IMG/VR virus record: IMGVR_UViG_3300029846_000231
Direction: 5' to 3' (one strand)
Length of the DNA: 31,774 nt
Source: a virus
Taxonomy: Duplodnaviria; Heunggongvirae; Uroviricota; Caudoviricetes
The notes under the pieces are model-generated. The model saw only the letters and a list, made by a program, of their open reading frames with translations. It had not been told where the DNA came from and did no database searches. The position numbers were made by a program, and so were the translations under genes. Shown piece by piece: positions 1-28,541 of this stretch. Positions within the stretch are counted from its first letter, which is position 1, and each line of letters begins with the position of its first letter.

Positions 1-642
1 TTAATCGGACGCTTTTAAATTTTTATTTTTCCCTGCAGAAAAATTAGCTTTCCCGCTGTTTTGCAACTCAACAAGAGGAGATAACCGTCGGTAAACAGCC
101 AAAAGTATCTTTAACTGAACCAGTTCATCTGCCCCCGATAGTTGAACCAAGTTTTTACGTTGTTCTTCACTAAGTGCCATCACAGATTCAAGTGATTTAA
201 CTGCGTCAGAAACAAGTTCAATCTCTTTAATTTGATTCTGTATACGCAGCTTCTCTGATTTCAACTTTGCCCATTCTCTTTGTCGATATGTACGCATCAC
301 CTGATCGTAAACTTTGTTGGCAGCCAGAATACTTCCACCAACAGCAGTAACTAACTCAGCAATCTGCCAAGAGATATCAATAAGAGCAGACAATTCAATA
401 AAGCCAGGAGAGGCATACTGAATTTTTTTCACTACAGGACGTAAATCTGGTGGAGTCGCACTGTAAGCCCCTCTAAAAAAGTTCACTACACTGTGCCCAC
501 CCTCCCAAGGCATTGTTGAATATCCTCTTGATCCTCCTTTTAGGCCATAAAAAAAACCATATAGCTGCAAATACTCTTTCGTTAAGACCGCGAAATCAGC
601 TAACTCCCAACGATTATCAAGCTCAATTATAACTTTTTCCAT
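1..642 (-). CDS. hypothetical protein, 213 aa, AT-rich cargo gene with a coiled-coil-like C-terminal half
   Basis: Complete ORF: ATG at 642, TAA stop at 1-3 (window starts 'tta'). Clearly AT-richer than the adjacent GC-rich phage genes. C-terminal half is heptad-like and charged (EWAKLKSEKLRIQNQIKEIELVSD...). No family recognised. Confidence 0.5.
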   Translation of the reverse strand: MEKVIIELDNRWELADFAVLTKEYLQLYGFFYGLKGGSRGYSTMPWEGGHSVVNFFRGAYSATPPDLRPVVKKIQYASPGFIELSALIDISWQIAELVTAVGGSILAANKVYDQVMRTYRQREWAKLKSEKLRIQNQIKEIELVSDAVKSLESVMALSEEQRKNLVQLSGADELVQLKILLAVYRRLSPLVELQNSGKANFSAGKNKNLKASD

Positions 643-744
643 TTTCCACCAACCTGTCCAACTTTAAAAAGTTACTTTTAAGTATATGATAAACATAGTT
701 TATTAAACGTGATCCACTACTTTTAATGAAGAATATTCCCCAAA

Positions 745-776
745 ACAGAAAGCCCCTCGACTGAGGGGCTTTCTGT
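745..776 (-). terminator. Rho-independent terminator downstream of ogr (symmetric hairpin, possibly bidirectional)
   Basis: Perfect 14-bp stem acagaaagcccctc / gaggggctttctgt with 4-nt loop gact. On the minus strand it is followed by TTTTGGGG, immediately 3' of the ogr stop at 783. Confidence 0.6.
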
Positions 777-782
777 TTGTAA

Positions 783-1001
783 TTACATCCACATAATTTG
801 CTGCCCTGACGGCAACGGGTGCGGCCTCACGGCGTGGACTTCTCCCGGCTTCACGATGTATCGCTGTACCGACTCATAAGTGATGAACGTGGCGCTGCAA
901 TTCACGTTCTGGCACTGGTGATAACGCTCTTTTGTCGTGTCAGTGATATAGCGACTTGTACGCGCATGTGCGGCATGCTGGCATAAAGGACAATGAAACA
1001 T
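783..1001 (-). CDS. ogr: Ogr, zinc-finger activator of late transcription (72 aa)
   Basis: Translation from the internal ATG at 1001 reads MFHCPLCQHAAHARTSRYITDTTKERYHQCQNVNCSATFITYESVQRYIVKPGEVHAVRPHPLPSGQQIMWM, matching P2 Ogr as I remember it, including the C-x2-C...C-x4-C zinc motif. The six-frame ORF begins further upstream (1115), but 72 aa is the P2 length. Confidence 0.9.
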   Translation of the reverse strand: MFHCPLCQHAAHARTSRYITDTTKERYHQCQNVNCSATFITYESVQRYIVKPGEVHAVRPHPLPSGQQIMWM

Positions 1002-1083
1002 CGCGAGCACCTCTTCCGGTTTTGTTGATGTTGCCATTTTAGTTAATTTATCCTTATAAAACAAACAGATAAAATAAAACACA

Positions 1084-2247
1084 TCACTCATCATCTTCGG
1101 TTTCGTACTCCACATCAGAAAGCCTTACCTCAAGCTCTAAGGACGTCGTGAAGCCGCTATTATTCAGAAAATGTGTCACCTTAGTGATTGTCCAGTCCTG
1201 CTCGTCTATGACACGCTTAAAGCCTGACACTTTGACCGGTGTTTCCGTGTAAATATCTGCCCGACCGGTAGCCAGGCTGATGGAGAACTCCGCTACACCC
1301 CGTTGCAGTTTATCCCACTTCGCCTGAGCGGCGCGCATGGCCTGCGCTTTCGTGGCATATACCGTGGTCAGGGCAAAAACGTTGTCAGCCTCACCGGCCA
1401 TGTATTCACCTTCGCGCGCTTCCGGTACTTTTGGCGCTTTCTTCTGCGTGACCGGTTTCGCTTTCGGGTGCTCCAGTGCGCGCAGGTGTTTTTCTTTCTT
1501 TTTGCGTTTCAGTTTTACCTTCTGCTTTTGCGGCTTCGGGTCTTTGGTATGTAACCACTTTGCCGTTACGCCGGTGTAAGCTCCACGGTCAGCAATCGCA
1601 AAATGATGACGGTCGCCGTCGCTGCGGGTGATGGTAATCTGCGGGATTTTTTTACCGCTGGCCGTCACCCCCTGCCCCGCTTTGAGAAACAACAATTTTC
1701 CCATTTTTACCGACACCTCACCGCCGTTGCGTTCAGCAAGGCGGGTCAGGAATTTTGCATCAGACTCCTGCGACTGGTCGATGTGTGGAATTTTTATTCC
1801 GGCCAGTGACGGAGCGACACTGGCTTCCAGCCTGTTACGGGTGGCTATCGCCTTAACAATCGCACCGAGCGTGGTGTCATGCCAGGAGCCTTCCCGGCGG
1901 GAATTGAGCGTCCCGCGAAAATCTGCACTCCGGGCGCGGATGGTGACTACATCCGGTGCGCCCCGGTGTTCAACCTCATCAACGGTAAATTTCCCTTTGC
2001 ATACCAGGGCAAAACCTTTCCAGCCGATATACACCGTCAGGACAGCGCCACGAACCGGCAGCCCGACCTGCCCGTCGGCATCGTTCAGTTCAATATCAAG
2101 CTGGTCAGCCTCAAAGCCCCGGTTATCCGTCAGGGTCATGCTCATCAGACGGTCGCTGATATTGCCGGTAATATCCCTGCTGTCGAGCATCAGCATGTAA
2201 TCCGGCGTCAGCGTACTGCCTGCATCAAATGTCAGCGCATCCAGCAT
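1084..2247 (-). CDS. D: tail protein D (387 aa)
   Basis: 387-aa ORF, the P2 gpD length, in the P2 position between U and ogr, with a lysine-rich central linker. Confidence 0.85.
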   Translation of the reverse strand: MLDALTFDAGSTLTPDYMLMLDSRDITGNISDRLMSMTLTDNRGFEADQLDIELNDADGQVGLPVRGAVLTVYIGWKGFALVCKGKFTVDEVEHRGAPDVVTIRARSADFRGTLNSRREGSWHDTTLGAIVKAIATRNRLEASVAPSLAGIKIPHIDQSQESDAKFLTRLAERNGGEVSVKMGKLLFLKAGQGVTASGKKIPQITITRSDGDRHHFAIADRGAYTGVTAKWLHTKDPKPQKQKVKLKRKKKEKHLRALEHPKAKPVTQKKAPKVPEAREGEYMAGEADNVFALTTVYATKAQAMRAAQAKWDKLQRGVAEFSISLATGRADIYTETPVKVSGFKRVIDEQDWTITKVTHFLNNSGFTTSLELEVRLSDVEYETEDDE

Positions 2248-5188: not shown

Positions 5189-5608
5189 TCGTGTTTCCGC
5201 TTCGCCGGAGCGCCTTTTCGCGCCATGTGATGAGTTCGGTCAGGCTCATGGGATACAGTTCTGATGGCGGCCAGTGAAATATCACTGCCACATCCGCCAT
5301 CAGGTCATCGACCGAGAGATTTTTCGGAAACGTCACTGCACCGAGTTCGGCGACAAAAAACCGACCACCTTACCGGCCAGCGCCACAAGGTCAGGCAGTT
5401 CCAGCGCGGCGACTTCCTGCTCGGTCAGCATCGGTGCCGTCATGCGCGGCAGCACTTTAATCAGTGCATCGACTTCGGAGTTCGCGACTGCAGCCAGACT
5501 GACACCGCGCAGCGTCCCGGCATTGGGTTTCATCAGCGTGATCTGTTCGATAACCTGCTCACCACGTTTGACCGGATTGTCCAGGGTAATGACGTTTTCT
5601 TTGTTCAT
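5181..5608 (-). CDS. E: tail assembly chaperone E+E' made by programmed -1 frameshift
   Basis: After a -1 slip at T_TTT_TTG the -1 frame stays open for 56 codons (VAELGAVTFPKNLSVDDLMADVAVIFHWPPSELYPMSLTELITWREKALRRSGNTNE) to TAA at 5181-5183, overlapping the T start. Total length about 142 aa, the P2 E+E' size. Confidence 0.8.
5333..5608 (-). CDS. E: tail assembly chaperone E (91 aa, zero-frame product)
   Basis: 91-aa ORF between FII and T, matching P2 gpE length and position. Confidence 0.85.
   Translation of the reverse strand: MNKENVITLDNPVKRGEQVIEQITLMKPNAGTLRGVSLAAVANSEVDALIKVLPRMTAPMLTEQEVAALELPDLVALAGKVVGFLSPNSVQ
5354..5360 (-). other. -1 ribosomal frameshift slippery heptamer T_TTT_TTG
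   Basis: Minus-strand sequence GGT TTT TTG TCG lies in the E zero frame six codons before the E stop; this is the canonical tail-chaperone G/GT-type frameshift arrangement. Confidence 0.8.
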
Positions 5609-7445: not shown

Positions 7446-8039
7446 CTATTTGTCCCGGTTGGCTAAGGGATGACACAATTTATTCTTTGTCGCTGATGAG
7501 GGGAATTTTTTATAGAGCGTGGACAGGCCAATATCAAAAATCAGCGCCACGCGTTGACGTGATTCACCCGCAGCCAGCAACCGTCCTGCCTGTTCCCACT
7601 CACTCGCGGTGAGCTTCGGACGTCTGCCACCAATACGACCTTTGGCTCTGGCCGCTTCCAGTCCGGCGCGAGTCCGCTCGACAATGAGTTCTCGTTCCAT
7701 TTCAGCCAGGGCACCCATCACATGAAAGAAAAAACGTCCCATCGGCGTGCTGGTATCAATGGCATCCGTCAGGCTGCGAAAATTAATGCCGCGTTCGCGC
7801 AGCTCCTCAACCAGAATAACCAGATGCCGCATACTACGCCCCAGCCGGTCCAGCTTCCAGACTACCAGTGTATCCCCCTCCGATAATGTCCTGAGCAGTT
7901 TTTTCAGTCCCGGCCTGTCGGACTTCGTGCCGCTGATTTTATCCTCAAAAATCAGCTCACATCCTGCACACTCCAGCGCGTTACGCTGCAATTCCGTATT
8001 CTGGTCATTTGTTGACACGCGGACATAGCCAATAAGCAT
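7446..8039 (-). CDS. serine-recombinase DNA invertase, Gin/Cin/Hin/Pin family (197 aa)
   Basis: N-terminus MLIGYVRVSTNDQNTELQRNAL with the catalytic Ser in RVSTNDQ, plus VVWKLDRLGRSM and MGRFFFHVMGALAEMERELI, which I recognise as near-identical to Mu Gin. Sits directly beside an invertible tail-fibre segment. Confidence 0.9.
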   Translation of the reverse strand: MLIGYVRVSTNDQNTELQRNALECAGCELIFEDKISGTKSDRPGLKKLLRTLSEGDTLVVWKLDRLGRSMRHLVILVEELRERGINFRSLTDAIDTSTPMGRFFFHVMGALAEMERELIVERTRAGLEAARAKGRIGGRRPKLTASEWEQAGRLLAAGESRQRVALIFDIGLSTLYKKFPSSATKNKLCHPLANRDK

Positions 8040-8094
8040 GATGGATCCCCTGAATAAAAACCGGGGATGATGCCAGTTAGCCGTAATCTCTGCA

Positions 8095-8120
8095 TTTTCT
8101 TAAACGTTGGTTTGGGAGAA
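8095..8120. repeat. candidate gix/hix-like invertase crossover site (left end of invertible segment)
   Basis: 26-bp 12-2-12 site ttttcttaaacg-tt-ggtttgggagaa. The reverse complement of its right half, TTCTCCCAAACC, resembles the Gin/Hin half-site consensus TTATCAAAAACC. It lies at the start of the silent fibre cassette, at the shared GLG codons. Confidence 0.55.
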
Positions 8121-8480
8121 GCGGCAAAACGGGGGGTGGGAACAGGGGAAAATCAGATACCGGACATGGCTTCATTTAGTGGGGTGAGGGATTATTACGG
8201 AAAACAACTTTTGCCAGGAGGGTTGATACTTCAGTGGCTGACGATTCCATCAAGTGCAGCAGCCAAAGCTGTAACACTGAATAATGGTAATTATCAGCTG
8301 TCAGGCTATAAATGGCCCCAGTCATTTGGTGTCCTGTTTGCTGTGTTTGCTACAAAAGTTTCTGGCTCGACTAACGAAGCATATGCAATCTCAGTTAATC
8401 GTCACTCTACCGATGTAATTGTCACCTGGAATGCCCGTAAGGCTGATGATGTCCACATTTTAGGAATTGGGAAATTATGA
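8109..8480 (+). CDS. silent alternative tail-fibre C-terminal cassette (expressed only after inversion)
   Basis: Frame begins with [23 protein letters not shown], paralogous to residues 277-299 of H (GLGTAAKKDVGTGTGQVPDMSSF), then diverges. No independent promoter or RBS is expected. Confidence 0.65.
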
Positions 8481-8896
8481 AAATGAAATGGTCCCCATCT
8501 GTTCAGGGATTTTTCTCTGAAAATAACAGCGATATTCCCGATGATGCTTTCGATATTGAAGATGCTCTTTATTATGAACTTATGAATGGTCAGAGTACGG
8601 GGAAAATTATTATCAATAACCCGGATAACTACCCTGTACTTACTGAATATCCAGCGAAGACACAGGAACAGGAAATAGCTGAAGCGGAGGGAATGAAAAG
8701 TATACTTATTGAACAGGCCAACGAATACATGAACAGTAAGCAATGGCCTGGTAAAGCCGCTATTGGTCGTCTGAAAGGTGAGGAACTGGCGCAATATAAT
8801 TTGTGGCTGGATTATCTGGACGCACTGGAACTGGTTGATACCTCCAGTGCTCCAGATATTGAATGGCCTACGCCTCCGGCAGTTCAGGCCAGATGA
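8477..8896 (+). CDS. alternative tail-fibre assembly chaperone (Tfa-like), cognate to the silent cassette
   Basis: 139 aa, start overlaps the cassette stop (ATGA). C-terminus [16 protein letters not shown] is paralogous to the C-terminus of the active Tfa ([15 protein letters not shown]). Confidence 0.65.
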
Positions 8897-9299
8897 CATC
8901 CGGCGCAGGGGAAGTATCTACCGCTTCCAATTTCTTGGCATAACTCCGCCAGGCTATGAGCCTGGCTTTATCTGCATCGCTGATAATTCCGAGCAGTAAA
9001 TCAGTCTGCCATTCACGAACAGCTTCCGCAGATTCGGCCATTAGCTGCGCTTTTTGGTTTTCTGCCTCCTGCACTGCGATAGCGTGAAGCTCATCATCTG
9101 TTGGAGGCGGAATATCTTCCCACGCAGGCAAACCATCAGCACCCGGCACACGTCGCTTCCCGTCGTTTTCTCCGATAAAAAATTCTGCAAAAATCTCGTT
9201 CGAAACAGGGACGGCATCAGTAAATGCGTCTGTTTTCAGTAAAGTACTTCCTGCAGCAATGAACACATTCTTTTTTGCGCTGTAATAGTAACTGGTCAT
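8868..9299 (-). CDS. G: tail-fibre assembly protein (Tfa, P2 gpG-like), active orientation
   Basis: 143 aa immediately downstream of H, with the conserved Tfa C-terminal motif; converges on the alternative tfa with a 29-nt overlap. Confidence 0.75.
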   Translation of the reverse strand: MTSYYYSAKKNVFIAAGSTLLKTDAFTDAVPVSNEIFAEFFIGENDGKRRVPGADGLPAWEDIPPPTDDELHAIAVQEAENQKAQLMAESAEAVREWQTDLLLGIISDADKARLIAWRSYAKKLEAVDTSPAPDVIWPELPEA

Positions 9300-19453: not shown

Positions 19454-21226
19454 ATGACCATCACCACAGACACCACTCTTTTACACGACCCGCGTCGTCA
19501 GGCGGCGCTGCTGTACTGGCAGGGGTTTTCCGTGCCGCAGATTGCCGCCATGTTGCAGATGAAACGTCCGACGGTGCAGAGCTGGAAACAGCGCGACGGC
19601 TGGGACAGCGTTGCCCCCATCAGCCGTGTCGAAATGAGTCTGGAAGCGCGACTGACCCAGCTCATCATCAAACCGCAGAAAACCGGCGGTGACTTCAAGG
19701 AAATTGACCTGCTGGGACGCCAGATTGAACGACTGGCACGGGTAAACCGCTACAGTCAGACCGGCAACGAGGCAGACCTTAATCCGAACGTCGCTAACCG
19801 CAACAAAGGCGGGCGACGCAAACCGAAAAAGAATTTTTTCAGCGACGAGGCCATCGAAAAGCTGGAGCAGATTTTCTTTGAGCAGTCTTTCGAATATCAG
19901 TTGCACTGGTATCGCGCCGGGCTTGAGCACCGCATCCGCGATATCCTGAAATCCCGCCAGATTGGCGCGACGTTTTATTTTTCCCGCGAGGCGCTGCTGC
20001 GCGCCCTGAAAACCGGTCATAACCAGATTTTTCTGTCGGCCAGTAAAACGCAGGCGTATGTGTTCCGCGAATACATCATCGCCTTTGCCCGTCTGGTTGA
20101 CGTTGACCTGACCGGTGACCCGATTGTCCTGGGCAATAACGGCGCAAAACTGATTTTTCTCGGCACCAACTCCAACACCGCACAGAGCCATAACGGCGAC
20201 CTGTACGTCGACGAGATTTTCTGGATCCCGAATTTTCAGGTACTGCGTAAGGTGGCATCAGGTATGGCCTCACAGAGTCACCTGCGCTCGACCTATTTCT
20301 CCACCCCGTCCACGCTGGCGCACGACGCCTACCCGTTCTGGTCGGGTGAACTGTTCAACCGGGGACGCGCCAGCGCCGCCGAACGCGTGGAAATCGACGT
20401 CAGTCATAACGCCCTTGCCGGTGGGTTTCTCTGTGCGGACGGCCAGTGGCGGCAGATTGTCACCATTGAGGACGCCCTGAAAGGTGGCTGCACGCTGTTC
20501 GACATTGAGCAGCTTAAACGCGAAAACAGCGCCGACGATTTTAAAAACCTGTTCATGTGTGAATTTGTTGACGACAAGGCGTCGGTATTCCCGTTCGAGG
20601 AGCTGCAACGCTGCATGGTCGACACGCTGGAAGAATGGGAAGACTATGCGCCGTTTGCCGCCAATCCGTTCGGCTCCCGCCCGGTCTGGATTGGTTACGA
20701 CCCGTCACACCGTGGCGACAGTGCCGGATGCGTGGTGCTGGCACCGCCGGTGGTGGCCGGTGGCAAATTCAGAATACTTGAGCGTCACCAGTGGAAAGGC
20801 ATGGACTTTGCCACCCAGGCTGAATCCATCCGCAAACTCACCGAAAAATACAACGTCGAATACATCGGAATTGATGCCACCGGCCTCGGTGTCGGCGTGT
20901 TCCAGCTCGTTCGCTCGTTCTATCCCGCCGCGCGCGATATCCGCTACACGCCGGAAATGAAAACCGCAATGGTGCTCAAGGCAAAAGACGTTATTCGCCG
21001 TGGCTGTCTGGAATATGACGTCAGCGCCACCGACATCACCAGCTCGTTTATGGCTATCCGCAAGACCATGACCAGCAGCGGACGCAGCGCCACCTATGAG
21101 GCCAGCCGCAGCGAGGAAGCCAGCCACGCCGACCTCGCCTGGGCGACCATGCACGCCCTGTTAAATGAGCCACTCACCGCGGGTATCAGCACTCCGCTGA
21201 CATCCACCATTCTGGAGTTTTACTGA
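19454..21226 (+). CDS. P: terminase large (ATPase) subunit P (590 aa)
   Basis: Start at MTITTDTTLLHDPRRQAALLYWQGFSVPQIAAM gives 590 aa, the P2 gpP length; preceded by GAGGT 5 nt upstream. Confidence 0.9.
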   Translation: MTITTDTTLLHDPRRQAALLYWQGFSVPQIAAMLQMKRPTVQSWKQRDGWDSVAPISRVEMSLEARLTQLIIKPQKTGGDFKEIDLLGRQIERLARVNRYSQTGNEADLNPNVANRNKGGRRKPKKNFFSDEAIEKLEQIFFEQSFEYQLHWYRAGLEHRIRDILKSRQIGATFYFSREALLRALKTGHNQIFLSASKTQAYVFREYIIAFARLVDVDLTGDPIVLGNNGAKLIFLGTNSNTAQSHNGDLYVDEIFWIPNFQVLRKVASGMASQSHLRSTYFSTPSTLAHDAYPFWSGELFNRGRASAAERVEIDVSHNALAGGFLCADGQWRQIVTIEDALKGGCTLFDIEQLKRENSADDFKNLFMCEFVDDKASVFPFEELQRCMVDTLEEWEDYAPFAANPFGSRPVWIGYDPSHRGDSAGCVVLAPPVVAGGKFRILERHQWKGMDFATQAESIRKLTEKYNVEYIGIDATGLGVGVFQLVRSFYPAARDIRYTPEMKTAMVLKAKDVIRRGCLEYDVSATDITSSFMAIRKTMTSSGRSATYEASRSEEASHADLAWATMHALLNEPLTAGISTPLTSTILEFY

Positions 21227-22260
21227 TGAGCAAGAAAAAAGGGAAAACACCGCAACCTGCGGCAAAAAAAATGACCGCCAGCACCCCGAAAATGGAGGCA
21301 TTCACCTTTGGCGAGCCGGTACCGGTACTCGACCGCCGTGACATTCTGGATTACGTCGAGTGCATCAGTAACGGCAGATGGTATGAACCACCGGTCAGCT
21401 TTACCGGTCTGGCAAAAAGCCTGCGTGCTGCCGTGCATCACAGCTCACCGATTTACGTCAAACGTAATATTCTGGCCTCAACATTTATCCCGCATCCGTG
21501 GCTTTCCCAGCAGGATTTCAGCCGCTTTGTGCTGGATTTTCTGGTGTTCGGTAATGCGTTTCTGGAAAAGCGTTACAGCACCACCGGTAAGGTCATCAGA
21601 CTGGAAACCTCACCGGCAAAATATACCCGCCGTGGTGTGGAAGAGGATGTTTACTGGTGGGCGCCGTCCTTCAACGAGCCGACAGCCTTCGCGCCCGGCT
21701 CCGTGTTTCACCTGCTGGAGCCGGATATTAATCAGGAGCTGTACGGCCTGCCGGAATATCTCAGCGCCCTTAACTCTGCCTGGCTGAATGAGTCGGCCAC
21801 GCTGTTCCGCCGCAAGTATTACGAAAATGGCGCACATGCCGGATACATCATGTACGTCACTGATGCCGTGCAGGATCGCAACGATATCGAAATGCTTCGC
21901 GAAAACATGGTCAAGTCGAAAGGCCGCAACAACTTTAAAAATCTGTTTCTCTATGCCCCGCAGGGGAAAGCCGACGGTATTAAAATTATCCCGCTCAGTG
22001 AAGTGGCAACGAAGGACGATTTTTTTAATATCAAAAAAGCCAGCGCCGCTGACCTGCTGGACGCGCACCGCATCCCCTTTCAGTTGATGGGCGGCAAGCC
22101 GGAGAACGTCGGGTCGCTGGGTGATATTGAGAAAGTGGCAAAGGTCTTTGTCCGCAATGAACTTATCCCGTTACAGGACAGGATTCGGGAAATAAACGGC
22201 TGGCTCGGCCAGGAGGTCATCCGCTTTAAAAACTACTCACTGGACACTGACAACGGCTGA
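21226..22260 (+). CDS. Q: portal protein Q (344 aa)
   Basis: 344 aa; N-terminus MSKKKGKTPQPAAKKMTASTPKMEAFTFGEP as in P2 gpQ; start overlaps the P stop. Confidence 0.9.
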   Translation: MSKKKGKTPQPAAKKMTASTPKMEAFTFGEPVPVLDRRDILDYVECISNGRWYEPPVSFTGLAKSLRAAVHHSSPIYVKRNILASTFIPHPWLSQQDFSRFVLDFLVFGNAFLEKRYSTTGKVIRLETSPAKYTRRGVEEDVYWWAPSFNEPTAFAPGSVFHLLEPDINQELYGLPEYLSALNSAWLNESATLFRRKYYENGAHAGYIMYVTDAVQDRNDIEMLRENMVKSKGRNNFKNLFLYAPQGKADGIKIIPLSEVATKDDFFNIKKASAADLLDAHRIPFQLMGGKPENVGSLGDIEKVAKVFVRNELIPLQDRIREINGWLGQEVIRFKNYSLDTDNG

Positions 22261-22448: not shown

Positions 22449-22686
22449 CGCCCGCTTCATGGGGCAGTTTTAATGCAGTTGCATAGATACTATGGATCCG
22501 CACCAGTCCTGACCGCACGCAGCCTGAACGGACATCCCCGACGCATGCAAAAACATTCACTTGTTGCATGCAACGGCTTATTTAATGACAAATCAACTTA
22601 AATTTACAAAATCCACAGGTATGGATACTTTGCGAACATGATAGGCTTACGAGAATTATCGAGCCTATTTTTGACCGGAGCAATGT

Positions 22687-23628
22687 ATGCAAGGTAAAGT
22701 TGACGAACAGCAATCCAATGATATTGAAGCTGAGTTTGGATACTATCCAGTAGAAGTTAACGTTGAAACTGATGATTTTTCTTTACTTACTTTACCCGGT
22801 CTAGCGGAAAAAACAAATCTTATAAACAATCACAGAAATGTTATTAACGGTTGGATATACCCAGGAAACCAAGAAGTATATAACCTCAATGGAGGCATAT
22901 CCACAATGCCTTTTAGCCAACGAGTATTTGGCTTACCCAAAACACACTCACTAAAATTAAAAAATACATCTTCACTAGAAACTCTCAATTTTGCTGTGTG
23001 GTGTCTGTCTTTTTTCAAAGGGATAAGATTAACAACTACTGATGCCGGTTTTTTAGACGCAACCCCAATAAAACCTAGCAAATTAACTGACTTTATTCTG
23101 GTCAAGTGCTCTGAAAAAGAGGTTATAGAATTAGCACTCAAATACATGTCTAGCGAGACAAAAACCAAACACGCACCAATAAATATAGCAGCAATAGTGC
23201 ATGCACTATTTTTATCCCAAAACCCACAATACCTTAGCTTCGAAAAATTCCAGTATCTTTATATGGCACTGGATAGTTGCTTTGCTTTAACATGGGCAGA
23301 AAAGAACAAGTGTACAGAAAAGACTCTAAATCACTCCAGGCGCTTGAAGTGGATCTGCAAAACTTATGGAATACCACGACCATCATGGGTTACAGGCAAA
23401 AAAAACATTACAAACATCCGCAATGAAAACTTTCATGAAGCTATGTTTCATGGTCAACCACTTGGCTTTACCACTATTAACAATTATCAATATGGAGATG
23501 ACATATTACAACAAATGCAGGCTTTAATTTGCCGATTACTCGTTGCGATTCTTGGTGTTAACGCCCCCGATTACATCACATCGAACGTGAACTCTCGTGA
23601 ATATCATTCACTAACATTAAAAATATAA
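22687..23628 (+). CDS. hypothetical protein, 313 aa, AT-rich cargo; candidate HEPN-like defence effector
   Basis: GGAG 6 nt before the ATG. Strong compositional contrast with flanking phage genes. C-terminal region has KNITNIRNENFHEAMFHG, i.e. an R-N-x3-H motif of the HEPN type (Rx4-6H). Family not recognised. Confidence 0.6.
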   Translation: MQGKVDEQQSNDIEAEFGYYPVEVNVETDDFSLLTLPGLAEKTNLINNHRNVINGWIYPGNQEVYNLNGGISTMPFSQRVFGLPKTHSLKLKNTSSLETLNFAVWCLSFFKGIRLTTTDAGFLDATPIKPSKLTDFILVKCSEKEVIELALKYMSSETKTKHAPINIAAIVHALFLSQNPQYLSFEKFQYLYMALDSCFALTWAEKNKCTEKTLNHSRRLKWICKTYGIPRPSWVTGKKNITNIRNENFHEAMFHGQPLGFTTINNYQYGDDILQQMQALICRLLVAILGVNAPDYITSNVNSREYHSLTLKI

Positions 23629-23644
23629 AACGACTAAAAATACT

Positions 23645-23668
23645 CTCCAGTAACAATAAGTACTGGAG
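23645..23668 (-). terminator. Rho-independent terminator between the convergent cargo genes
   Basis: 8-bp stem ctccagta / tactggag with 8-nt loop; on the minus strand followed by AGTATTTTTAG, 40 nt after the stop of the 199-aa gene. Confidence 0.55.
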
Positions 23669-23710
23669 ATGTATTATCACTAAAACCAATAAAAAATCAC
23701 AACTAATGCT

Positions 23711-24310
23711 TTACTTAGATAGTTTGTCTTTAATTATATTCAGAACACCAATTATTAATTCACTGATTGGCGTGGCCAACTCAATAGTATTAGATGTCGA
23801 CTTTGTTCTAAAGTCTTTATCTGTCGGGTGTTGAAATGCTGATTTAAGAAGAGTCAAAAGCAAAGTTAAACCCACACCAAGGATGAATGCAACAATAGCT
23901 ATTAGAGAACTGGCCGATAACCAATCGGTGGATAAACCAGAAATAGATTTTCTAACTTTATTAGTGTCTGAAGATGGTGTTATCCTCTCATCAGCCATCT
24001 TCGGATCCGAAGATAAAGCAGAACATTTTTCTGCTGAAACACAAGTTTGTGTATCTACTTTTTGTGTTATCGCTGCGGCAATACTGCTTTTCGCTTCCAG
24101 CAAGCCATTTCCAACAGCCAAAGCAAAGTTAAGCCCCTGCCATAGAAATGTACAAGCAAAACAAAGCACAACGGCAGAGAGCACTAATCGCATGCTTCTA
24201 CGCTCTATACCATCCCGTCTATCTCGCCTTATAAGGATATCAGGATCTAAATCGCCCTTAGGAGTGGTTCCTTGCTCTGGGGACTGTCCAGATAAATCAA
24301 TATCAGCCAT
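23711..24310 (-). CDS. hypothetical membrane protein, 199 aa, two predicted transmembrane helices
   Basis: Hydrophobic stretches LVLSAVVLCFACTFLWQGLNFALAVGNGLL and LIAIVAFILGVGLTLLLTLL; charged N-terminus (RRDRRDGIERR). Same strand and 66 nt downstream of the peptidase gene; AT-rich. Confidence 0.6.
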   Translation of the reverse strand: MADIDLSGQSPEQGTTPKGDLDPDILIRRDRRDGIERRSMRLVLSAVVLCFACTFLWQGLNFALAVGNGLLEAKSSIAAAITQKVDTQTCVSAEKCSALSSDPKMADERITPSSDTNKVRKSISGLSTDWLSASSLIAIVAFILGVGLTLLLTLLKSAFQHPTDKDFRTKSTSNTIELATPISELIIGVLNIIKDKLSK

Positions 24311-24376
24311 AAAAAAATCACCCTTACATGTACAAACGTAAAGGTGATTTTAAACAGGTTAAAAGTTAAAGGCTAA

Positions 24377-24862
24377 TTAATAAGCCATTCCTAAGCTCTT
24401 TAAGCGCCAATGCATAGCGGCTTCTGATACATTAAAGATGCTTGCTAATCTCAAAGTGCTATCAATACCTTCTCTGGATACCAATTGACGTATAGCAGAC
24501 TCAGGCATTAACAACTCAGCAGCAAACTTGTTTGCTTCAACCTCACGGTAATCACGAGCACCTGTTGAATAATTCCCGACATTATCCCGATGGTACTCTC
24601 CGTCCTGGGTATGCCCCAGCACATGATGACCTAACTCGTGTGCAACAGTAAAACGTTGACGATTAGAATGTTCACTAGAATCAAAATAAATCCTATGGAC
24701 ACCCTTTTTGATGACAGCCAGACCGCTTAACCCATCGTTGTTATAAGCCGATTCCTCAAGTGCTTCAACACGAGCACCCCACGCTTTAGCAAGCTTAAAC
24801 GGATCGACAGGTAGTCGGCGATCCCAATAGCGGTCAAGCAGTTTTTTAGCTGCATAGCTCAT
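24377..24862 (-). CDS. ImmA/IrrE-family (M78-type, COG2856-like) Zn-metallopeptidase domain protein, 161 aa
   Basis: HEXXH motif in FTVAHELGHHVLGH plus downstream EANKFAAELLMPE, the characteristic ImmA/IrrE signature. AT-rich; no adjacent XRE/HTH partner on either strand. Confidence 0.7.
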   Translation of the reverse strand: MSYAAKKLLDRYWDRRLPVDPFKLAKAWGARVEALEESAYNNDGLSGLAVIKKGVHRIYFDSSEHSNRQRFTVAHELGHHVLGHTQDGEYHRDNVGNYSTGARDYREVEANKFAAELLMPESAIRQLVSREGIDSTLRLASIFNVSEAAMHWRLKSLGMAY

Positions 24863-25583
24863 GGTTGCCTCCTACGTTAAAAAAGTTAAGTATGCACAGC
24901 CATATCACAGTTGTTATTTTATGTCAAGGCTGTTTTTCAGCCATTACTATAACACTAATCCACGTTTTCCCATAACATTTTCGACATCATATATGCATTC
25001 CGTTCTGCATATAGAGCTTATCTTTGCTGATAACACGAGATGAATACGCGCAACCAGCCCACGATTTATAAAAAACCTTATAAATCAGAATATTGAGTTA
25101 AAAAAACACTAACTACTTGCGCAGCGCGTTGTTAAACCTCAGCGACACTAAAAGAAAATTTCAGAGTCACCGAAGTTTCCACAGAAAACGCAACTTAATG
25201 ATTTTATTGGAATTTATGTCGCTATTTTTAATTACTTGTTTAAATCCGCCATATTGAAACTGTGCATTTCTAGCCACTCACAACTTTAAAAAATTTACAT
25301 TGCTTTCAAGACCTTATCATCCGTAGTCTCTGCTTTTTACTTTGAGCTATATCAAAAAAAGCTCAAACATCCTTGATGCAAAACCAGTATTACACAACAT
25401 AAAATGCAACCAGAAACAACGACATACTATATGTTGTGTTGTTCAGGTCCTCTGTTCGGTGATATGCCAGATCACTTTGCGTTTAAACAGAGCATTATTT
25501 CAGGGCAAGACTTCGCTCAATAGTCACTCCGCCTTAGAAGCGCATATATCGGCGGAAATTGCCCTCTGCTTACAGGAGGCGAT

Positions 25584-25697
25584 ATGAAGAAGTGCTATTA
25601 CTGCATTCTCGTTCTGGCCCTCTTTGGCTATCCATATGGTAGTCCGAGTGGTTTGTCAGTAAACGTCAGTAATATCCATGTAAGTATTTTTCTTTAG
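25584..25697 (+). CDS. small hydrophobic peptide, 37 aa (MKKCYYCILVLALFGYPYGSPSGLSVNVSNIHVSIFL); type I toxin-like or small membrane protein
   Basis: Consensus SD AGGAGG 4 nt before the ATG; TAG stop 13 nt before a strong terminator hairpin. Short, with a hydrophobic core after a KK N-terminus. Confidence 0.4.
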   Translation: MKKCYYCILVLALFGYPYGSPSGLSVNVSNIHVSIFL

Positions 25698-25710
25698 TAT
25701 GCTTCAAACA

Positions 25711-25739
25711 AAAAAACCACCTGCCAGGGTGGTTTTTTT
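25711..25739. terminator. bidirectional Rho-independent terminator
   Basis: A6-ccacctg-cc-agggtgg-T7: GC-rich hairpin flanked by an A-run and a T-run, so it can terminate the small plus-strand gene and minus-strand transcription from A. Confidence 0.65.
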
Positions 25740-25999
25740 GCGCCCGTCATCAATCCGATGAAAGACTAGCAAGACTTCGCTCGAGATGAATTATGCTTCG
25801 ACATAAAGTCACTCGCAATGGTTTTATTAACCGAAATAGATGCTCTTTTATGACTCGAATCAAATAGCTGCCTTCAATTACATGCTAACGATTCAATACA
25901 ATTTAGCCTTCTGATTCAACACGCTATTGCTCCTCATCTACCTTAGAGGTGCTTCGCATAATCCATTCAAAGACATATAAAATCACGCTGTATTTTTAC

Positions 26000-28276
26000 T
26001 CAAATGGGTAACAAAAACCCCGGCCAATCATCAGCGACCTGATAAGTGAAAGGTTTCCCGTCATAATTTACGGTCGCGCCACGCGCCAGCGCCTCAAGCT
26101 CCCATCGTTGCGGCCTGATACCGTTCTGAGCGAGATCAACGCGGATACGGGTAATTTGCAATCGTTCCGACCGGGTCAGTCTGGCCGATGGTGCAATTTC
26201 ATGCGGTTTTAACGGGCTTCCGTTTCTTTGCTGACGGTTTGGCGTTCTCCGGTCGTGTTTTAATGCGCCCCTGAGCGCCCTCACGACCTCCGGGTCATTC
26301 CATTCGATAACATCGTCATCAACCAGATTAAGCACTGCTGCGGCGTGCTCAGAAGGTGTGGGAGCCGGTAACGAAGTATCACCACCGGTGAGCTTTCCAC
26401 AGTTATTGACAGGACTCCGAGGCGCGGCGATGCCGCTTTTTAAAGTCAAAGGCTCAACGACCGGAACTTTCGGCACAATGCGCCAGTCCGTCGTTCTGGT
26501 GATATGAATATGACGCGCGCCGAGATGCGGCGCGTAAATGCCGACCACTCTCTCGACTTCTTCCTCGTACTCGTTAACGTCATCCGACAGACTACGGGCG
26601 ACCCTGACAGTCTGACAATCGCGCGGGACATTTGCCCCGCCCTGCGCGCTGATATACAGCGCAAAATCACCACTGTCTGCGGCGGCGCGTGCAGCCTCGA
26701 CGCGCTCGTCAAACTCATCAGCAATGCTGACGCCGCGAGGCAATTTGCGTAGTTCACGGTAAGCCCCCATTGTCGGCAGGCCAACCGTTTTAAATTGCGG
26801 AATGCGCCACGTTGACGCCCATGCGGTAACAGCCGCTGCAGTGTCTTTCAGCGGCCTGCCGGTGTCGTTATCGAGCTGACCATCCAGTGCATAGCCGTCG
26901 ATGTTTTTTGAAATGTATTTCGCGATATATCCCGCAGCACCGCCCCGGTTAAGGTGTTTTGCCTGAAAACGGTTTCGCGCGGCTCCTCTTTCGTCGCCAT
27001 CCTCTTTGAGCGCATAGCGACGCATGATTTCGATAATCTGGTTACGCTGGCGTGGATGACAAAAAAGCATCATATGCCAGTGCGGCGTTCCGTCGTGGTG
27101 TGGCTCGACGACTCGCAAACCGTAGACCTGTAAATCATTATCCTTGAATGCCGTGCGCATCAGGCTCCAGATACGGCAGAGATAACGCTGCGCATCCTTT
27201 GGATTAAATGCCTCATCGTTCCAGCCGTGATTAAGCTGAACGGTTTTACTTTCGCCTTTTCCGACCTGACGTGTCGGGTGATACTTTGACGGCGCGGTCA
27301 GCGTGATAAACATCCCCACATCACCCTCTGCGGCGGCGTAACGCTCAATACCGGCAATGGTGTTCATCAGCTCCATCCGGCGAATTTCAGGATTAGAAAT
27401 ACTGCCCATCACCTTACTGATAAGGTCGATGCGCTCGCCGGTTTCCCTGTTTTCAAGGTCACACGATTTAAGAAATTCCAGATTTGCCTGGCGGCGCGCA
27501 CGCACATCACGAATGGCGTGTTTACTGGCATAAGGAGAACGGTCTTTATTGACCTCCCCGACAGCTATCAGTAACGCCTCATGCCAGCGCATACGCTGGC
27601 CTTTAAGCTGATGAGTCCACCACTCATCGTTAAACAGGCGGGCAATGGCAGAATATGCCTGCCTCGTGGTCATCTGTCCTTTACGGTATTTTTTCCAGTA
27701 GAGCGGGGAAATATTGAAAGCACGTGCAGCGCCAGCAACATGACCATACAGGTGAGCCTGCGCCTCATCCGTAAACAGCGATTCTTTTTCACCATGCGCA
27801 TCAACCCATGCATCGCAGAGTTCCTCATACATCATGAAAAGCTGCGATGAGATACGGGCGGCAAACTTTTTCAGCTCCTTGTCATTCATTCCCGGCAGGC
27901 GCGCATAGTGGTCACGCTCTGCCAGAAACAGCAACGACGCGTCGGTGTTCATTTCATGGCGCTGATTCACACGCTCAATGCGCGGCCATAAACGACGCTG
28001 AAAAGTAGATGTGAGGAAATAAAACCCGTGCACCGGGCTTTTATTGCGCCGGATGTAGTCATAGCGTGAAGTAAACAGCGAGCGCAAAAAGTAAGGCAGG
28101 CGGTTAATCGTGGATAAAACACCTTGCACCTGACGCATCTCGTCACGTGTAAGAGGTCTTTCGCGCCCGACAGCCTCGCGTGGCGCGTTCCATGCATAAG
28201 CACCGGTAAACGCCTTACCGGTGCCTGCGGTAAATGCTGACGGAGGGACAAAACGCCCGGAGGCTTTAACGGCCAT
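26000..28276 (-). CDS. A: replication initiation protein A (rolling-circle nicking endonuclease), about 758 aa
   Basis: Start at MAVKASGRFVPPSAFTAGTGK as I recall for P2 gpA (about 761 aa); the six-frame ORF extends 14 codons upstream. Large protein in the P2 A position after orf83. Confidence 0.85.
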   Translation of the reverse strand: MAVKASGRFVPPSAFTAGTGKAFTGAYAWNAPREAVGRERPLTRDEMRQVQGVLSTINRLPYFLRSLFTSRYDYIRRNKSPVHGFYFLTSTFQRRLWPRIERVNQRHEMNTDASLLFLAERDHYARLPGMNDKELKKFAARISSQLFMMYEELCDAWVDAHGEKESLFTDEAQAHLYGHVAGAARAFNISPLYWKKYRKGQMTTRQAYSAIARLFNDEWWTHQLKGQRMRWHEALLIAVGEVNKDRSPYASKHAIRDVRARRQANLEFLKSCDLENRETGERIDLISKVMGSISNPEIRRMELMNTIAGIERYAAAEGDVGMFITLTAPSKYHPTRQVGKGESKTVQLNHGWNDEAFNPKDAQRYLCRIWSLMRTAFKDNDLQVYGLRVVEPHHDGTPHWHMMLFCHPRQRNQIIEIMRRYALKEDGDERGAARNRFQAKHLNRGGAAGYIAKYISKNIDGYALDGQLDNDTGRPLKDTAAAVTAWASTWRIPQFKTVGLPTMGAYRELRKLPRGVSIADEFDERVEAARAAADSGDFALYISAQGGANVPRDCQTVRVARSLSDDVNEYEEEVERVVGIYAPHLGARHIHITRTTDWRIVPKVPVVEPLTLKSGIAAPRSPVNNCGKLTGGDTSLPAPTPSEHAAAVLNLVDDDVIEWNDPEVVRALRGALKHDRRTPNRQQRNGSPLKPHEIAPSARLTRSERLQITRIRVDLAQNGIRPQRWELEALARGATVNYDGKPFTYQVADDWPGFLLPI

Positions 28277-28541
28277 ATGAGCCAAAAGCCTCTGAACAAC
28301 GCTTGCTGAGTTGCTCAACCTGCGCGTTTAAATCAGCAAAAGATTTTGCGCTTCCGGTCAGAATATCGTGATGCATCAGGCCGGAAACGAGCTGGCCTAA
28401 TTTCGGGTAATAACCAACCACCGCCAGCCATTCCTGACCGGCGTTTTTACCGCTTTCCGCTCTCTTTTTCTCGTGGAGAATAAACTGAAAGCTGTCACTG
28501 GTAACGACATAACGTTCGCCAATTTCAACACGAATACTCAT
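28266..28541 (-). CDS. P2 orf83-like protein (91 aa)
   Basis: Small ORF in the P2 early operon between orf82 and A; start overlaps the orf82 stop. Confidence 0.7.
   Translation of the reverse strand: MSIRVEIGERYVVTSDSFQFILHEKKRAESGKNAGQEWLAVVGYYPKLGQLVSGLMHHDILTGSAKSFADLNAQVEQLSKRCSEAFGSYGR

Follow-up and report, generated by a model that had tools for sequence, protein, structure and literature searches.

The window analysed here, a stretch of 31,774 nucleotides from a virus of the Caudoviricetes (IMG/VR record IMGVR_UViG_3300029846_000231), consists for the most part of a collinear P2-like prophage with D, U, T, E, tail and head genes, P, Q, A, cox, and C, and its far end is the stop codon of int. 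At the opposite end, past ogr, lies an open reading frame of 213 codons, referred to below as the cargo gene. The locus raises two questions: whether this gene belongs to the prophage or is the first gene of the flanking host DNA, and what its product might do.

Organization of the ogr-proximal end

The features of this end of the window are as follows.

1–642, minus strand: coding sequence of the 213-aa cargo protein (ORF, PADLOC PD-T4-10_B match, hhalign, homologues, pN/pS, and AlphaFold2 model)
643–737, minus strand: AT-rich cassette leader (sequence and composition; missing from empty-slot sibling prophages)
738–779, minus strand: intrinsic terminator of ogr (16-bp perfect stem 743–758/763–778, 4-nt loop, T-rich tail)
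783–1001, minus strand: ogr, P2 late-gene activator, 72 aa (NCBIfam NF007241, E 1.7e-52; RefSeq 'OgrK' in matching genomes)

The initial annotation had described a complete, AT-rich ORF of 213 aa beyond the ogr terminator, and both parts of this description are borne out. The ORF runs from an ATG at 642–640 to a TAA at 3–1 on the minus strand, position 1 of the window being the final base of the stop codon, and its GC content is 39.7% (31% at third codon positions) against 52.3% in the remainder of the window. The inverted repeat of the terminator separates it from ogr. An identical protein is found at the same position in matching genomes, where it is labelled 'hypothetical protein' (NCBI WP_000416606.1). 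The ORF is not a chance one, because 118 close homologues were recovered (best E 3e-132), an exhaustive profile search with clustering at 50% identity yielded a family of 791 representatives that reaches Vibrio integrons and Pseudomonas prophages, and pN is low (0.125–0.26) against a saturated pS (0.76–0.85) in comparisons with the Kosakonia, Enterobacter, and L011 orthologues. By these comparisons, the cargo gene is a real gene under purifying selection.

On the phage side, ogr is the final core phage gene ahead of the cargo gene. Its terminator has a fold energy of −28.3 kcal/mol, with a T-run after the stem. The leader has a GC content of 29% (measured over 643–748) and contains a Shine-Dalgarno-like GGTGG at 646–650, 3 nt ahead of the ATG. 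Standard promoter and terminator scans gave nothing above chance, and the best sigma-70-like hexamer pair in a permissive promoter scan was a weak one with 8 of 12 matches; a promoter may nevertheless lie within the leader. A hairpin located 3′ of the cargo gene (−14.5 kcal/mol) is not followed by a T-run. In an Rfam scan of window positions 1–1200, no score came near the gathering thresholds. As a separate observation, the record of Salmonella phage STYP1 has the leader (643–748) in common with this prophage, but is uninformative because it stops exactly there.

Attachment sites and the boundary of the prophage

Since the window contains no att site, sibling genomes were used for att mapping, namely complete E. 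coli genomes that share the ogr–cargo gene junction at 99.2–99.7% identity (85 genomes span this junction). In E. coli strain M10, the prophage sits between cpxP and fieF. A 47-bp direct repeat, GACACCATCCCTGTCTTCCCCCACATGATGTGGGGGTTTTTTTTATC, brackets the segment that comprises int to ogr and the cargo gene, and represents attL and attR. In the locus used for the coordinates (L003), the attL copy lies just after cpxP at 5397–5443, 116 bp from the int stop, and the attR copy is found at 37270–37316, ahead of fieF and 82 bp past the stop codon of the cargo gene, which itself occupies 36546–37187 between the two copies. In terms of the window, attR falls just outside, 82 bp beyond position 1. 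In genomes that carry no prophage at this site, the match begins exactly at the first base of the 47-bp core.

Two direct TGTGGAC repeats (CGATGTGGACGCTATGTGGACA) are present between the cargo-gene stop and the core, and the int side carries a matching pair of arm repeats. The repeats fit the consensus of P2-type integrase arm sites, tgTGGaCa (PMC3448106). Arm and core together correspond to the attP region of phages WPhi, L-413C, and R18C at 97–99% identity (97.4% for WPhi, AY135739, and 98.3% for L-413C), and the att sites are, as judged by this similarity, of the WPhi type and not of the P2 type. The 47-bp attL/attR pair encloses the gene, the alignment with empty sites starts at the core, and the arm repeats separate the gene from that core, so that the mapping puts the gene within the att-delimited prophage, with ogr on one side of it and the P arm of a WPhi-type attP on the other. 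On this evidence, it is accessory ('moron') cargo in a P2-like prophage of the WPhi type located between cpxP and fieF.

The converse arrangement, in which the prophage boundary falls between ogr and the gene, the latter being the first host or island gene, had been left standing by the initial annotation, which named a comparison of both flanks and of an uninfected strain as the way to decide. Such an arrangement would accord with the location of the gene past the ogr terminator, with a composition foreign to the phage backbone, and with P2 itself, in which attP is all that follows ogr. However, both the attR core and the integrase arm repeats are located past the gene, which contradicts it, and uninfected genomes have a cpxP–fieF gap of ~150 bp in which the gene is not present. 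It was found in neither of the two prophage-free genomes with flanks read to cpxP or fieF, whereas in all four gene-bearing E. coli genomes with flanks read it sits beside ogr, or beside an ogr split by IS150, and next to fieF. The interval 643–782 lacks any att-like sequence, attR included, just as the initial annotation had noted; the P2 core given there is likewise absent, and the same is true of the WPhi-type core and of paired arm repeats throughout the window. The att mapping thereby refutes a host origin of the gene at this position, to which we assign practically no chance, and the either/or is settled in favour of cargo.

A polymorphic cargo slot

In a sibling prophage with an empty slot at the same site, the arm repeats begin 4 nt after the ogr terminator. 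The gene-bearing prophage has ~753 bp inserted at that point, made up of the leader, the ORF, and 13 nt. The phage-side edge of this insertion is the ogr terminator, the alignment with the empty slot diverging just past the stem. The contents of the slot in 5,426 complete E. coli genomes were as follows.

Slot with the 213-aa gene: 160 genomes, all at 99.2% nucleotide identity or above
Slot with an unrelated 135-aa gene: 44 genomes, opposite orientation, occupying precisely this slot in ETEC6333, the single locus read
Slot empty (WPhi-type junction): roughly 450–560 genomes (an estimate)

The cargo gene is intact in 159 of the 160 carriers, the exception matching bases 1–545 only, and some carriers have IS150 between ogr and the gene. 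The alternative 135-aa cargo occurs as two alleles; its N-terminus was judged by eye to be signal-peptide-like, and no PADLOC match to the protein was obtained. As this second cargo looks signal-peptide-bearing and is without a PADLOC match, the slot does not appear to be specific to defence. Taken together, these alignments delimit a cargo slot of small size and variable content, bounded by the ogr terminator on one side and by the P arm of attP on the other.

With regard to other sources, 47 IMG/VR loci combine an identical Ogr with sequence downstream of it, and in 46 of them there is nothing between the terminator and the arm repeats, the remaining one holding this gene. A general role of the ogr–att junction as a hotspot was rejected on this ground, and the slot is seldom filled outside WPhi-type phages, given that 46 of the 47 loci are empty. 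The same prophage with the cargo gene was also found at fieF in one Salmonella enterica assembly. A prophage of Kosakonia arachidis carries an orthologue of 77% identity that follows ogr directly and is itself followed by arm repeats and the same core. In that locus, the sole terminator hairpin comes after the cargo gene, which suggests that the two genes may be co-transcribed in Kosakonia.

By virtue of its place between the ogr terminator and the arm repeats, the cassette would be expected to be excised, packaged, and transferred with the phage. Since no homologue of the cargo protein is encoded by the phage isolates in INPHARED (tblastn), it is the att geometry from which we infer virion transfer.

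Relationship to PD-T4-10B

PD-T4-10 is a defence system of two overlapping ORFs that emerged from a functional selection in E. coli ECOR65 (Vassallo et al. 2022, Nat Microbiol; PMC9519451). B is toxic and is neutralised by A in a toxin–antitoxin-like manner; deletion of B abolishes the abortive-infection protection against T4, and the protection conferred by the ECOR65 system concerns T-even phages. PD-T4-10 itself comes from a P2-like phage hotspot, according to a preprint (10.1101/2024.10.15.618418).

Searches of Pfam, PHROGs, and NCBIfam with the 213-aa protein gave nothing significant, and no match to DUF6575 was detected in it even at E values up to 10. The profile search proposed along with the initial label of 'unknown function' gave a match to the PADLOC profile PD-T4-10_B (PDLC04024) at E 1.3e-34, restricted to profile positions 139–346 of 353. 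The alignment of a short-form profile with a long-form profile by hhalign had a probability of 100% and an E value of 8e-60 over the C-terminal ~245 columns of the long form. The 213-aa protein is ~29% identical to the long forms, and the motifs PW-GG-S-VNF, IQYASPG-IEL, and LKILL-YRR are common to short and long forms. Invariant residues shared by the two are W12, Y24, Y28, G48-G49-x-S51, Y76-A-S-P-G80, K178, and R185; every invariant residue of the short forms falls in a motif that is also conserved in the long-form alignment, and there are no HEPN-like or nuclease motifs among them. These alignments establish homology of the whole 213-aa protein to the C-terminal ~200 residues of PD-T4-10B. 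The family is thus already known through PD-T4-10B, and the initial label, to which the general databases still add nothing, can be sharpened to a stand-alone homologue of the C-terminal domain of that protein.

Two architectures account for most of the family. Short forms of ~207–243 aa contain nothing but the domain and account for 97 of 147 representatives (about two thirds); a further 37 are long forms of ~320–400 aa, in which the domain is C-terminal. The short forms begin at the same position, each with its own start codon, and the ORF start coincides with the boundary of the C-terminal domain. The long forms are full-length PD-T4-10_B proteins whose beta-rich N-terminal domain matches DUF6575 in part; the ORF of 114–147 aa that abuts them upstream corresponds to the A gene.

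An AlphaFold2 model of the 213-aa protein, built from a 44-sequence alignment, has a pLDDT of 87.7. It predicts a head formed by a strand (residues 2–8), two helices (14–36 and 49–61), and a hairpin (70–86) bearing IQYASPGFIEL, followed by helices at 88–103, 105–154 (50 residues), 159–168, and 173–195. A sequence-profile search of the PDB with this protein returned no match, and the fold is one without a solved relative. A transmembrane helix was considered and rejected, because the maximal Kyte-Doolittle mean over 19 residues is 1.35 and hence below the usual threshold of 1.6.

Stand-alone occurrence and genomic contexts

The search for the missing parts of a PD-T4-10 system in the window gave uniform results. 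With five A proteins as queries, tblastn produced chance matches only; no DUF6575-like sequence was found in the window, and the leader has no similarity to DUF6575 coding sequence. The cargo gene is preceded by 95 bp of AT-rich leader and then by the ogr terminator, and the cassette contains no second or partner ORF. The gene accordingly lacks, within the cassette and the window, both the DUF6575 N-terminal domain and an antitoxin partner.

In a genome-wide scan, short forms were found at 39 of 44 species-level loci. Clustering of the ORFs that flank the short forms at 32 loci revealed no family in common, apart from pairs contributed by sister genomes, and when the 120 nearest neighbours were scanned with Pfam and PADLOC, no family had more than two members. 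One candidate partner, a downstream DUF4917/PDC-S21 gene, was discarded as it is confined to two related Pseudomonas loci.

The contexts of the relatives are varied. One Vibrio homologue is a single-gene cassette between VCR-type attC repeats in a superintegron, and two more Vibrio loci (L014 and L015) have a cassette-like layout as judged from the gene arrangement alone. Further short forms were located at the end of HP1/P2-like prophages that is nearer to host DNA, and one adjoins a prophage S24 repressor. The nearest neighbours of relatives include PifA, ThsB, AbiU, GajA/B, and PD-Lambda-4_A as well as phage genes. In one relative, P0232, EAD1 and a TRADD-like N domain precede the shared domain, and its gene has as neighbours an EAD1-trypsin gene and one for type IIG restriction-modification.

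Comparison with known systems

Compared with PD-T4-10, the cargo protein shows the homology to PD-T4-10B in the C-terminal part only; it is without the DUF6575-type, beta-rich N-terminal domain of B, and the gene is without the overlapping or abutting upstream antitoxin gene A (~115–150 aa). In addition, it occupies a different phage slot. As two of the three testable defining features are absent, it should not be filed as PD-T4-10. An adjacent, co-transcribed antitoxin gene is also what distinguishes a type II toxin–antitoxin module from the arrangement found here.

The cargo gene resembles the P2 morons old, tin, and Z/fun and the genes of P2 defence hotspots in that it is likewise AT-rich, polymorphic for presence and absence, situated between conserved modules, and swapped among near-identical phages. 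The hotspots named in the available parts of the literature are gpA–gpQ, tail/Z-fun, int–att, and int–primase (Rousset 2022; Vassallo 2022; PMC13586616), and the slot between the ogr terminator and the P arm corresponds to none of these four positions. On the other hand, a broad third hotspot, 'tail protein to CI regulator', includes the slot as far as the preprint is available (10.1101/2024.10.15.618418, 2024). Unlike such hotspots, the slot is small and holds one gene, with few alternative contents.

Domains that are combined with EADs are reported to exist on their own as well, in counter-invader systems of simpler design (PMC8195603; Kaur, Burroughs, Iyer, Aravind 2020/2021). The family member P0232 fits this coupled-or-alone rule, as a single observation, and its architecture and neighbours place the domain in counter-invader systems, where it may act either as effector or as sensor; the 213-aa protein itself has neither an EAD nor a TRADD-N domain. 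Finally, the cargo gene is lone, partnerless, and located at the edge of an element, as are the genes for single-gene abortive-infection and exclusion proteins of prophages, but no sequence or fold relation to these proteins was found, and the likeness is one of lifestyle only.

Probable role of the cargo protein

The most likely role that we infer for the cargo gene is that of a single-gene anti-phage module. The lysogen would make the protein from a weak promoter that the leader may contain, or by read-through from ogr. It would be harmless in uninfected cells, given that 160 E. coli genomes keep the gene with no antitoxin and that it persists in this state in single-gene integron cassettes. 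Infection by an unrelated phage might then activate the protein, or the protein might bind a phage component directly, and infection would be stopped, probably by sacrifice of the infected cell as PD-T4-10 does, so that the lysogen population and the prophage are protected. In the two-gene relatives, the N-terminal domain and protein A may add an inhibitory control layer that the short form is without. For the combined claim, namely that the gene is prophage cargo, made in the lysogen, harmless until infection, and a one-protein anti-phage module, we consider the chances to be about even.

An antitoxin-free, stand-alone homologue of a toxin would be unexpected if the domain were the toxic part of PD-T4-10B. 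It may be that the short-form domain senses or regulates and that killing falls to the other half; sensor or repeat regions frequently occupy the C-terminal position of TRADD-N proteins in bacteria (PMC8195603).

Several other roles must be weighed against that of a defence module. A 5′-truncated, non-functional toxin gene left over from a two-gene PD-T4-10 system would account for the limitation of the match to positions 139–346 of PD-T4-10_B and for the absence of the A gene. Yet proteins of the short form represent the majority architecture, with a common start position and their own start codons, they are under purifying selection and move as single-gene integron cassettes, the gene is intact in nearly all of its E. 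coli carriers, and no trace of DUF6575 coding sequence was left in the leader, which together make a remnant very improbable. Another proposal is that the phage carries a copy of a PD-T4-10B-like interaction or sensor domain as a decoy, which would titrate the trigger or poison the assembly of host toxins and would allow a P2-like phage to infect, or to reside in, hosts that possess PD-T4-10-like systems. This would suit a phage-borne gene that is missing what turns the two-gene system into a controlled toxin and that is apparently tolerated without antitoxin, and it is compatible with either half of PD-T4-10B being the killing half. However, most short forms occur outside phages, in integron arrays, defence islands, and chromosomal sites, and no homologue is present in the INPHARED isolates. 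The invariant residues of the short forms all fall in motifs conserved in the long forms, which suggests the same activity and not a degenerate mimic. We regard a decoy as unlikely.

A larger share of doubt comes from functions outside defence, such as lysogenic conversion or a fitness effect exerted through host physiology or stress tolerance, or help with integration or excision of the phage. The signal-peptide-like alternative cargo of 135 aa, to which PADLOC found no match, and the proximity of the slot to the Int arm sites both speak for functions of this kind. Against them, the sole experimentally characterised relative is a defence toxin, and the neighbours of relatives include several known defence proteins together with genes of mobile elements; the existence of integron and non-P2 homologues argues against a role specific to P2 recombination, and sibling phages that do not have the gene still integrate at this site. 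A role outside defence is rather improbable, though more probable than the other rivals.

A more far-reaching reading joins these elements. The ~200-residue domain would be an unrecognised, self-sufficient anti-phage module with a new fold, composed of a small alpha/beta head and a long helical stalk, which senses and stops infection without a partner. PD-T4-10 would be a derivative under tighter control, with the DUF6575 domain and the inhibitor A added, and the interval from ogr to the P arm would be an extra slot, missed by standard defence annotation where the 'system' is scored as incomplete. We put this forward tentatively, as a possibility that falls short of an even chance.

Implications

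If the lone short form does defend, the minimal functional unit of the PD-T4-10 family would be one small protein, and about two thirds of a widespread family would then represent unannotated single-gene defence. Rules of the PADLOC or DefenseFinder type demand both A and B. Lone short forms can therefore be expected to go uncalled at the system level by such rules, while PADLOC would flag the cargo protein at the level of the single protein. In other respects the gene is ordinary, a further accessory gene of a prophage with kinship to a defence protein already known.

The family also provides a clean contrast between the toxin core alone and the core accompanied by DUF6575 and an antitoxin, which would tell the killing part from the restraining one. 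With respect to the hotspots named in the accessible parts of the reports above, the junction of the ogr terminator and the integrase arm sites represents an extra cargo position in WPhi-type P2-like phages. For this position, naturally isogenic prophages exist in which the slot is empty, holds the 213-aa gene, or holds the other gene.

Conservation of the Slot across Genera

In Kosakonia arachidis, a degraded P2-like prophage (L101, 5685-6760) retains ogr together with an orthologue of the cargo gene (77% identity), while its T and D genes look as if they were fused through deletion. After the orthologue come a terminator, the arm repeats and the WPhi-type core seen in E. coli, and because this layout is shared, both the core and the ogr-to-arm slot are conserved across genera, although K. 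arachidis and E. coli differ in where the cargo is inserted with respect to the terminator. In Salmonella enterica SR33 (L097), the same prophage lies on a linear 80-kb record (NZ_CP092913) labelled 'plasmid unnamed1', which looks like a mislabelled chromosomal contig since fieF, pfkA, sbp and cdh adjoin the prophage. In two Pseudomonas spp. prophages (L102 and L107, 6636-7656), the short form, i.e., the stand-alone domain, has a DUF4917 protein, the PADLOC candidate PDC-S21, encoded no more than 28 bp downstream; this may represent a lineage-specific pairing in Pseudomonas.

Alternative Cargo in the Same Slot

A different gene occupies the slot in E. coli ETEC6333 (NZ_CP122600):

L152 1608-2015, strand opposite to the cargo gene: 135-aa gene, ogr-to-arm slot

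It is unrelated to the 213-aa cargo gene and has a terminator-like hairpin of its own, and its N-terminus, judged by eye, resembles a signal peptide. The gene was found in 44 E. coli genomes as two alleles (~79% identical), its slot position being taken from the ETEC6333 locus alone, and it has homologues in Salmonella, Klebsiella, Citrobacter and Serratia. The gene had no PADLOC matches and no recorded Pfam domains.

Cassette Ends and Rearrangements

Among E. coli genomes, 160 carry the cargo gene and 85-86 have its junction with ogr intact; the difference suggests that a sizeable subset of carriers is rearranged on the ogr side; in the one such locus read, that of E. coli ESY003, IS150 lies between ogr and the cargo gene (L009, 4605-5974). 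The opposite cassette end was read in E. coli M10 (L003):

L003 37174-37195, just beyond window position 1: hairpin GCGTCCG-ATTAAA-CGGACGC, 8-bp, GC-rich, -14.5 kcal/mol

This hairpin spans the cargo-gene stop codon and is without a T-run. Seven nucleotides, GGACGCT, found where the cassette ends, recur in the first arm repeat and could be microhomology left by the cassette insertion event.

Other Regions of the Prophage

The gpQ-gpA interval, a classical P2 hotspot, is AT-rich in the window (22500-26000, 35-43% GC) and contains three ORFs, listed here with the two flanking genes:

21226-22260: portal gpQ
22687-23628, +: 313-aa ORF
23711-24310, -: 199-aa ORF
24377-24862, -: 161-aa ORF, Peptidase_M78/ImmA-IrrE protein
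26000-28318: replication gene gpA

The 161-aa product matches Peptidase_M78/ImmA-IrrE in Pfam (E = 3.8e-21) and capP in PADLOC (E = 1e-30), and is also RmrA-like; the 313-aa and 199-aa ORFs had no matches in either. The trio may constitute an uncharacterised defence locus.

The tail-fibre region carries an invertase:

7446-8039: Hin/Cin-type serine invertase, Resolvase + HTH_7

It adjoins tail-fibre and tail-fibre-assembly ORFs of opposing orientation, at the place occupied by Z/fun in P2, and the whole (7446-8899) looks like an invertible host-range segment.
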